A stretch of 1,552 bases of DNA, from the NCBI RefSeq assembly GCF_013315695.1, contig NZ_CP054362.1, one strand, 5' to 3'. Made by a program: the position numbers and the translations under genes. Positions 136 through 1,458 of the stretch are shown here, in pieces. Every line of letters starts with the position of its first letter. Within the stretch, counting starts at the first letter, position 1. Under the pieces are notes generated by a model. It saw nothing but the letters and a program-made list of their open reading frames with translations, ran no database searches and was not told the origin of the DNA. The stretch comes from Escherichia coli. GTDB taxonomy: Bacteria > Pseudomonadota > Gammaproteobacteria > Enterobacterales > Enterobacteriaceae.

Positions 136-612
136 ATGTTTATTGATTCAGAAAAACGACTGAAACAACTTTCAGATGAGGCAAAGAAAAACACCGAGGA
201 TCTCGAAGAAGCAAAGAAGAATTCAAGGTTTACACAGGTATCCCCAAAAGGTTGGGAACGCGTTCGAGAGCTGCTGAAGGATAGCCAAGGCATATCAGCA
301 CTGAAGCTGTACTCATTTTTAGCGGAGCATATCGATCCTACGTGTGGCGCTGTCGTTGCGGATCAGCAATTCCTAGCTGAAAAACTTGGAGTTAGCAGAA
401 GCACAATTATTCGTTGGCTCAATTACTTAGAATCAAAAAATGCATTAGTTAGAATCCCCGTTGCTGGTAAGGTTTGTGCGTATGCCCTCGATCCACATGA
501 AGTCTGGAAGGGATACAACACTACGAAAAACCATGCAGCATTTGTCACTAAAACACTGGTCAACAAAGACGGTGATATTCAGCGCCGAATCATGGCCATG
601 TTTTCAAATTGA
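136..612 (+). CDS. repA: Small winged-helix replication initiator protein (RepA/RepL-like), 158 aa, about 18 kDa
   Basis: Only ORF with a proper RBS and ATG start, ending in TGA at 610-612. Its GC content is clearly lower than the downstream DNA. A helix-turn-helix motif is visible at residues ~77-100 (QQFLAEKLGVSRSTIIRWLNYLES, nt 364-435), followed by a wing-like beta region (VRIPVAGKVCAYALDPHEVWKG). Iteron-like repeats sit directly upstream. The Rep call and the symbol are inferred from architecture and motif resemblance, not from a search. Confidence 0.8.
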   Translation: MFIDSEKRLKQLSDEAKKNTEDLEEAKKNSRFTQVSPKGWERVRELLKDSQGISALKLYSFLAEHIDPTCGAVVADQQFLAEKLGVSRSTIIRWLNYLESKNALVRIPVAGKVCAYALDPHEVWKGYNTTKNHAAFVTKTLVNKDGDIQRRIMAMFSN

Positions 613-995: not shown

Positions 996-1106
996 TTAAA
1001 CCCCGCCTCGTGCGTCTGAGAGCTTCTGAGCGCGTTTGAAGGGCTATCTGACGACTCATCCCCGAAAGAACAACAGCGGAATCACCGACAACATGCGAGA
1101 GGTGGC

Positions 1107-1168
1107 ACCGCTCGCCGCAGCCCCAGCGACCGAACGTTAGTGAGCGAGTGGGCGAGGAAGCGGAAGAG
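1107..1168. other. ColE1/pMB1-like conserved non-coding segment, matching the block just downstream of the ColE1 replication origin; candidate lagging-strand priming (primosome assembly) region
   Basis: accgctcgccgcagcc...gtgagcgag...gcgaggaagcggaagag closely matches the pBR322/pUC backbone sequence as I remember it. No RNA I/RNA II-like sequence precedes it. The priming-site function is an inference. Confidence 0.45.
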
Positions 1169-1204
1169 AACCGGAAACCACATTGAGCACGTACGCACTG
1201 ATAC

Positions 1205-1229
1205 GGGGTGTCGGGGCGAAGCCCTGACC
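1205..1229. repeat. Left arm of a perfect 25-bp inverted repeat (ggggtgtcggggcgaagccctgacc)
   Basis: Exact reverse complement of 1434-1458, separated by 204 bp. Confidence 0.9.
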
Positions 1230-1397
1230 AGATGGCAAACGGAATATCGTCGCGGGTGACGGTATTACATTTGCACATCCTGTCCCGATTTCTGCGGGGG
1301 TTAACGGTGAACGGACGGCAAAAAACGTGCAGGAGCTGTTGAACGTGAAAACCACGAAATCTGGCAAAAATCACGGCTGGCGAGGCTTGCAGAGGAG

Positions 1398-1458
1398 TAA
1401 GCCAGTATACACTCCGCTATCGCTACGTGACTGGGTCAGGGCTTCGCCCCGACACCCC
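1398..1458 (-). other. ColE1/pMB1-type oriT (bom) nick region; predicted nick on the minus strand near 1400-1403 (CTGG/CTTA on that strand)
   Basis: The minus strand reads gggtgtcggggcgaagccctgacccagtcacgtagcgatagcggagtgtatactggctta, nearly identical to the pBR322 bom/nic region as I remember it. Nick position is by analogy with ColE1 relaxase (MbeA) cleavage. No relaxase gene is present in the window. Confidence 0.6.
1434..1458. repeat. Right arm of the perfect 25-bp inverted repeat; this arm belongs to the ColE1-type bom/oriT homology
   Basis: Exact reverse complement of 1205-1229. The sequence corresponds to the bom-proximal pBR322 segment gggtgtcggggcgcagccatgacc with a few substitutions. 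Confidence 0.9.

Follow-up and report, generated by a model that had tools for sequence, protein, structure and literature searches.

The window analysed here, a stretch of 1,552 nucleotides taken whole, is a complete circular plasmid of the pKL1/Col(MG828) family that has already been catalogued, and its orphan ColE1-type oriT is probably genuine and one half of a two-oriT module, which would give the plasmid two transfer routes. An R64-type and a ColE1-type oriT lie ~120 bp apart on opposite strands and converge within a ~260-bp module (1202–1458; Table 1). Judged by their sequences, the two halves belong to different relaxase systems, those of NikB and MbeA.

Table 1 Features of the 1,552-bp window plasmid and NikA-repeat alleles of its relatives (a slash marks the presumed nic)
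Feature	Position	Strand	Remarks
Palindromes, iteron- or operator-like, TGTCGCATCC...GGATGCGACA	within 1–110 (3–50)		upstream of repA
repA	136–612	+	158 aa, winged HTH replication initiator; Pfam HTH_36, 3.5e-8
ColE1-like segment CCGCTCGCCGCAG...GAGCGAG..GGCGAGGAAGCGGAAGAG	1093–1170	+	aligns to ColE1 ~1310–1370, collinear with bom
Orphan I-complex (R64/IncI1-type) oriT	1202–1291	+	copy of IncI1 oriT; strand opposite to ColE1-type core
Perfect 25-bp long-range inverted repeat, left arm	1205–1229	+	right arm 1434–1458; 25/25, 204 nt apart
8-bp inverted repeat hairpin	1210–1217 / 1221–1228	+	element described for R64 oriT
17-bp repeat B	1235–1251	+	R64-type inverted repeat
17-bp repeat A (NikA site)	1258–1274	+	R64-type inverted repeat
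Nick region ACATCCTG/TCCCG	1275–1287	+	identical in IncI1 and IncK2/Z plasmids
Spacer between convergent nick sites	1292–1397		in neither ColE1 nor IncI1; 86.6% conserved
Orphan ColE1-type (MbeA/MOB-HEN) oriT core	1398–1458	−	59/60 identical to ColE1
NikA-repeat allele of window, L007, L011, L013	window 1235–1274	+	pU15A_A-type IncI1 allele
NikA-repeat allele of L008			standard IncI1 allele
NikA-repeat allele of pKL1	L004 455–497		close to IncK2/Z pDETEC33; repeat A identical
NikA-repeat allele of pJD8/L012			that of IncK2/Z pE-T84-1-NDM-5

A one-gene plasmid of the pKL1 family

Over positions 1–1552 the window was identical (100%) to dozens of circular 1,552-bp plasmid records, for example pVR50I (NZ_CP011143.1) and pJJ1886_1 of strain JJ1886 (NC_022661.1), the hosts of these records being E. 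coli, E. fergusonii, Klebsiella and Enterobacter; the suggestion of a first-pass annotation that this could be a complete minimal element of ~1.55 kb therefore holds. A pKL1-type RepA and a full-length collinear alignment place the plasmid in the pKL1 family, and MOB-suite gave it and pKL1 alike the replicon type Col(MG828) and the call ‘mobilizable’. RepA (WP_000469298.1) is the same protein in pKL1, pJD8 and the window plasmid, and pKL1 itself (NC_002145, 1,549 bp, from E. coli) has the same size and layout, with ~90% identity in the non-coding part.

The sole gene conserved among relatives was repA, which does not encode a relaxase. When all open reading frames of at least 25 aa were listed and compared with Pfam and NCBIfam, no relaxase or accessory mob gene was found in the 1,552-bp circle, in agreement with the earlier view that there is no mob gene and no room for one. 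A 226-aa frame on the minus strand (694–1374) was considered as a hidden relaxase and rejected, as neither it nor two other frames had a Pfam or NCBIfam match; it is broken in pKL1 and in the relatives L007, L008, L010 and L012.

Rfam searches of both strands at E ≤ 1 returned zero matches, hence neither RNAI/RNAII nor another known RNA, so that the replicon is not of the RNA-controlled ColE1 type, and replication is presumably RepA-dependent. The presumed replication origin and repA control region (1–110) holds the palindromes listed in Table 1 and adjoins the ColE1-type hairpin on the closed circle; a scan for promoters and terminators found nothing exceeding shuffled expectation. Directly after that hairpin, at 1461–1492, lies a palindrome with 12-bp arms (AAGGGCGTTGCG...CGCAACACCCTT), followed by a T-rich tract.

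The G+C content is ~37–50% in the rep part and 53–63% in the non-coding part (~680–1500), a contrast that marks the plasmid as a mosaic. A GC-rich non-coding block (~644–1196) was 90–98% identical across plasmids with unrelated rep genes: it is carried by the relatives L008, L011 and L021 (pU15A_F), all with WP_000031238.1, and also by L014, a 4.2-kb RepL plasmid without the oriT module. The block behaves like a portable cis-acting module.

Two convergent origins of transfer

Read on the minus strand, the ColE1-type segment runs GGGGTGTCGGGGCGAAGCCCTGACC and then CAGTCACGTAGCGATAGCGGAGTGTATACTGGCTTA, with hairpin stems at 1453–1446 and 1442–1435. A gapless alignment of 1398–1458 with ColE1 (NC_001371, ~1462–1522) contained one mismatch in 60 positions, T for G in the hairpin loop, and ColE1's own copy of the hairpin element thus differs by this one loop base. 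An exact 18-mer, CCAGTATACACTCCGCTA, is common to the window, ColE1 and pSNE1, and a GC-rich inverted repeat, GTCGGGGC-GAA-GCCCTGAC, lies upstream of the nick core on the minus strand and is predicted to form a single-stranded DNA hairpin. A 111-nt query around the segment matched 4,777 PLSDB plasmids with E-values from 1e-15 to 1e-49, 4,391 of them typed mobilizable, and the ColE1-type bom named by the first-pass annotation was in this way confirmed by both nucleotide search and alignment. Most of the 4,777 alignments spanned exactly query 27/29–88 (window 1396/1398–1457), which means that the block of homology in the window is the very block conserved among ColE1-type oriTs. Bona fide ColE1-type plasmids have the same block near MobC/MbeA/MbeB/MbeD genes; that of the window is not beside an mbe/mob operon and is an orphan, a ColE1-type oriT sequence but not a ColE1-type mobilisation region.

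From the ColE1 literature we take the nic to be CTGG/CTTA, between 1402 and 1401 on the minus strand; homology to ColE1 ends ~4 nt past this presumed nic and ~57 nt before it. The core is presumably ~58/60 identical to the pBR322/pMB1 bom, the comparison having been computed against ColE1 only. ColE1 homology is wider than 1398–1458 alone, with ~1108–1170 aligning to ColE1 ~1310–1370 within a segment that we take to resemble the primosome-assembly (n'/rri) site of ColE1/pBR322. From this segment to bom the distance is ~100 bp in ColE1, and the window has ~200 extra bases. The 1093–1170 segment, which forms the 3' part of the GC-rich block at ~644–1196, has counterparts in 3.3-kb plasmids and some large ones.

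R64-type oriTs are described as having 8-bp inverted repeats, 17-bp inverted repeats and a nick region (PMC3817090). The plus strand of the window has the same 8-bp hairpin, 17-bp inverted repeats and nick region as the R64/IncI1 oriT, but this is an orphan copy, with no nikA or nikB beside it and with flanks that are unrelated to IncI1 beyond ~1202 and ~1287. Its nick region, ACATCCTGTCCCG, begins right after repeat A, and we take the NikB nic, 8 bp from repeat A, to lie between 1282 and 1283 (after Furuya and Komano).

The segment 1202–1291 was ~92% identical to the sequence directly upstream of nikA in ~1,380 conjugative plasmids; in such helper plasmids ~12 bp separate the oriT from the start codon of nikA, which with nikB makes up the IncI1 relaxosome genes. 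A chimeric 170-nt query, composed of IncI1 flanks and the window's version of the repeats, was matched identically over all 170 nt by at least eight IncI1 plasmids, and ~15 records ranked above the standard allele. Among the at least eight exact matches was pU15A_A, which is identical to the window over the 54-nt repeat-plus-nick block and has beside it the standard IncI1 NikA protein (WP_001283947.1). Such an exact match in the native nikA context identifies the window sequence as the copy of a real oriT allele and not a degenerate look-alike. The T-strand of the R64-type oriT folded at −22.6 kcal/mol (z = −4.3).

The earlier expectation that the plasmid is transferred only with the help of a ColE1-family MbeA survives in part: the orphan ColE1-type core is real, but the word ‘only’ has to go, since an exact copy of an IncI1 oriT at 1202–1291 implies that one I-complex plasmid should be enough, even where a ColE1-type partner is missing.

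Ahead of each presumed nick, on the strand to be nicked, lies one and the same GC-rich hairpin, and it is because the R64-type and ColE1-type oriTs share this element that the window contains a perfect 25-bp inverted repeat. On the nicked strand of both oriTs the stem has a G-T pair instead of a C-A mismatch and folds better than its complement (−11.5 versus −8.6 kcal/mol for the ColE1-type core). The 25-bp arms differ at 1–4 positions in five of eight relatives (pKL1, L009, L010, L011 and L012), and the perfect match in the window is probably lineage-specific and incidental. A functional long-range stem and transposon-like ends were both rejected as explanations of the repeat, given the common oriT hairpin and the arm differences in these five relatives.

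A 6,863-bp Rop-encoding (ColE1-type) plasmid of E. coli (NZ_CP147073.1, 1307–1758) matched the R64-type and ColE1-type parts within ~450 bp, so that the two oriT types may also be paired outside the pKL1 family.

Conservation, NikA-repeat alleles and helper co-occurrence

Identity was compared across eight hand-picked relatives, of which three have a rep gene that is diverged or unrelated. Within the whole plasmid, conservation was highest at the two nick cores, with 99.3% for the ColE1 type and 98.5% for the R64 type, and the hairpins stood at ~96–97.5% (97.5% on the ColE1 side). Lower values were found for the spacer, for the remaining non-coding DNA (89–93%) and for repA (76%), and the NikA-repeat region, at 81%, was the lowest within the module. 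The high conservation could also be explained by repeated recombination with co-resident helpers, rather than by selection for transfer.

These values bear on whether the IncI-type oriT alone works, with bom and the pas-like segment a recombination relic from a ColE1-type plasmid and no substrate for MbeA. The collinearity of pas and bom with ColE1, as if one captured block had later been interrupted by ~200 bp, and the end of homology so soon (~4 nt) beyond the presumed nic are what such a relic might look like; the pKL1 database entry is of R64 type, and the orphan ColE-type oriT of pSe-Kan gave no transfer with IncP tra genes alone, in an assay without Mob proteins. A relic would be expected to decay, yet bom, at 99.3%, is the best conserved segment, against 87% for the spacer beside it. 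Plasmids that have another rep gene retain bom as well, and it begins and ends where the core common to functional ColE1-type oriTs does, so that we consider this explanation unlikely.

The NikA-repeat region was found as four discrete alleles (Table 1), with both arms changing together and no drift. Each has an identical or almost identical counterpart in the oriT beside nikA of a distinct helper, two of these being IncI1 and two IncK2/Z. The NikA proteins of the helpers share 88, 65 and 59% overall identity, with divergence that is mainly N-terminal and a C-terminal half that is nearly invariant. Such a parallel between allele and NikA would be expected of mini-plasmids that follow the DNA-binding specificities of different helpers.

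The window's allele is common in mini-plasmids and rare in IncI1 plasmids (the ~15 records mentioned above). Strain U15A holds both the IncI1 plasmid pU15A_A (3674–3727) and a 1,506-bp relative of the window, pU15A_F (1137–1190), with an identical 54-nt repeat-plus-nick allele. The patch in pU15A_A ends between the window equivalents of 1271 and 1287, an interval that contains the nick site. This points tentatively to an exchange of oriT in the direction from hitcher to helper. A more speculative proposal, which we regard as possible but doubtful, is that the pKL1 family is a dedicated dual-route hitcher, in which the ColE1-type oriT stays constant and the NikA cassette is repeatedly swapped according to the I-complex helper; exchange may also run backwards, with relaxase-mediated oriT–oriT recombination seeding alleles into conjugative plasmids.

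Natural variants of one oriT with the other intact were seen in two relatives: L007 has TAAGCTAG in the ColE1-type core (~1265; window 1403), and L012 has CATCCAG in the R64-type nick region (~1140; window 1281). Both are possible natural single-route variants.

We surveyed 5,426 complete E. coli genomes, taking unions from concatenated queries with at most one record lost to E-value scaling. A pKL1-like repA was present in 401 genomes and the full dual-oriT module in 331 (353 records, including plasmids with an unrelated rep gene), while nikB-like and mbeA-like genes were present in 1,424 and 949 genomes, respectively. Counted over strains that are phylogenetically non-independent, repA occurred with nikB in 146 genomes against 105 expected (odds ratio 1.68, p = 4e-6) and with mbeA in 167 against 70 expected (odds ratio 3.87, p = 2e-32), the latter association being confounded by small-plasmid recovery because small plasmids tend to be retained together in an assembly or strain. 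The enrichment of mbeA is compatible with mobilisation by MbeA in trans. Between 58 and 64% of carrier genomes were without an mbeA-like or without a nikB-like gene, as expected of a hitcher that persists after transfer, and this is also compatible with zero dependence on either helper.

Could the ColE1-type bom be the only transfer origin, needing ColE1-family MbeA and accessory proteins together with a conjugative pore? The mbeA co-occurrence is the stronger of the two relaxase types, the core is intact and 99% conserved, and pBR322 and the three-element system of pST1030-3 provide precedents; yet an exact native copy of an IncI1 oriT lies ~120 bp away, the R64-type nick region is itself 98.5% conserved, the NikA repeats track different helpers and a published oriT collection places the pKL1 oriT in the R64 family, all of which makes bom as the sole origin very improbable.

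We see hardly any likelihood that neither oriT serves transfer, be it that they act in cis in maintenance (as single-strand initiation hairpins or in relaxase-mediated multimer resolution) or that they are inert passengers homogenised by recombination. Such a role would sit well with the neighbouring non-coding block that is common to unrelated replicons, and with the lack of one or other helper in most carriers, but not with a full oriT architecture that is correctly oriented and lies on the strand whose hairpin contains the G-T pair, with alleles matched to helpers, with the enrichment of carriers for both helper types or with the experimental mobilisation of comparable orphan oriTs.

Two PLSDB relatives, L011 (NZ_CP148506.1) and L013 (NZ_CP148516.1), have the MOB-suite type non-mobilizable. 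NZ_CP148506.1 holds both oriT cores exactly, and NZ_CP148516.1 holds the ColE1 core, with an R64-type oriT that spans the start of the record.

Predicted routes and related plasmids

Within the two-route reading that we prefer, the sequence evidence makes it likely that the IncI route is functional, and for the ColE1 route we lean slightly towards function; nicking and actual transfer we infer for either route. By the first, NikA from a co-resident I-complex conjugative plasmid would bind repeat A and NikB would nick after ACATCCTG, and the plus strand would be exported by the helper's own type IV secretion system. By the second, the route put forward in the first-pass annotation, an MbeA-type relaxase and accessory proteins from a co-resident ColE1-like mobilizable plasmid would nick the minus-strand oriT at 1398–1458, and the minus strand would exit through a conjugative system (F, P or I types) to which the relaxosome couples. 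Judging from collinearity, the ColE1-like pas segment would then be among the first parts of the transferred strand to reach the recipient, as in ColE1.

The closest comparison, pKL1, has both oriTs in the same convergent arrangement as the window plasmid; it differs in a NikA-repeat allele that matches IncK2/Z, not IncI1, and in its ColE1-side hairpin, where 1 nt is deleted and another substituted. The ColE1/pMB1 bom has the same 60-bp nick-plus-hairpin core, followed by the pas-like segment in the same order. In pBR322 the bom is an orphan that relies on Mob proteins in trans. The window differs from ColE1/pBR322 in that its replicon is not of ColE1 type and ~200 bp, including the second oriT, lie between pas and bom; it is also a natural plasmid, unlike the engineered pBR322.

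Both oriTs of pBuzz are reportedly of I-complex type, whereas those of the window belong to two relaxase families (NikB and MbeA) and sit on a wHTH-Rep replicon rather than a rolling-circle one. pBuzz (1,982 bp, rolling-circle; Moran and Hall 2019) is reported to have its two oriTs inverted and to be mobilised by a B/O plasmid. Plasmids of the pCERC7 type reportedly combine an R64-related oriT with their own NikA. The pSe-Kan and pKPN2 plasmids carry an orphan ColE-type oriT and an F-type oriT, and pSe-Kan is mobilised through the F-type one; pST1030-3 has an orphan ColE-type oriT and is transferred in a three-element system whose other members are a Mob plasmid and an IncI1 plasmid. Like the window, these three are without a relaxase and have an orphan ColE-type oriT; unlike it, they have ColE1-type replicons, are 5–7 kb in size and carry resistance genes, and the second oriT is F-type as against IncI-type. 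In the pWBG749 family of Staphylococcus aureus, non-conjugative plasmids carry oriT copies in subtypes that match the subtypes of conjugative helpers (PMC8136818); these mimics differ in host phylum, relaxase family and sequence, and the likeness to the window is functional only.

Orphan oriTs on relaxase-less plasmids (‘pOriT’) have been documented at scale (Ares-Arroyo et al., PMC10123127), and that paper lists oriT_pKL1 in a collection described as experimentally validated, in the R64 family, and as found in conjugative and mobilizable plasmids. Orphan oriTs, the R64-family oriT of pKL1 and dual-oriT mini-plasmids such as pBuzz and pSe-Kan are thus already described, and the window plasmid is a known kind of element. 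In the literature on orphan oriTs outside the primary pKL1 and pBuzz papers, we found no statement of the pairing of NikB-type and MbeA-type oriTs in the pKL1 family, and no description of the four helper-matched NikA-repeat alleles or of the few IncI1 plasmids that carry the allele of the mini-plasmids; we claim novelty for none of the three.

What the analysis contributes is detail to a known picture, not a new kind of element. Relaxase-less plasmids with only an oriT are now believed to account for a large fraction of bacterial plasmids, and members of the pKL1 family rank with the most frequent small plasmids in E. coli (replicon in 401 and module in 331 of 5,426 genomes). Two origins for unrelated relaxase systems change which co-resident plasmids are predicted to act as mobilisers, which bears on models of plasmid networks and on tools of the MOB-suite type. 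A one-gene plasmid of this make-up offers a compact natural test bed for oriT specificity, strand choice and the tracking of helpers.
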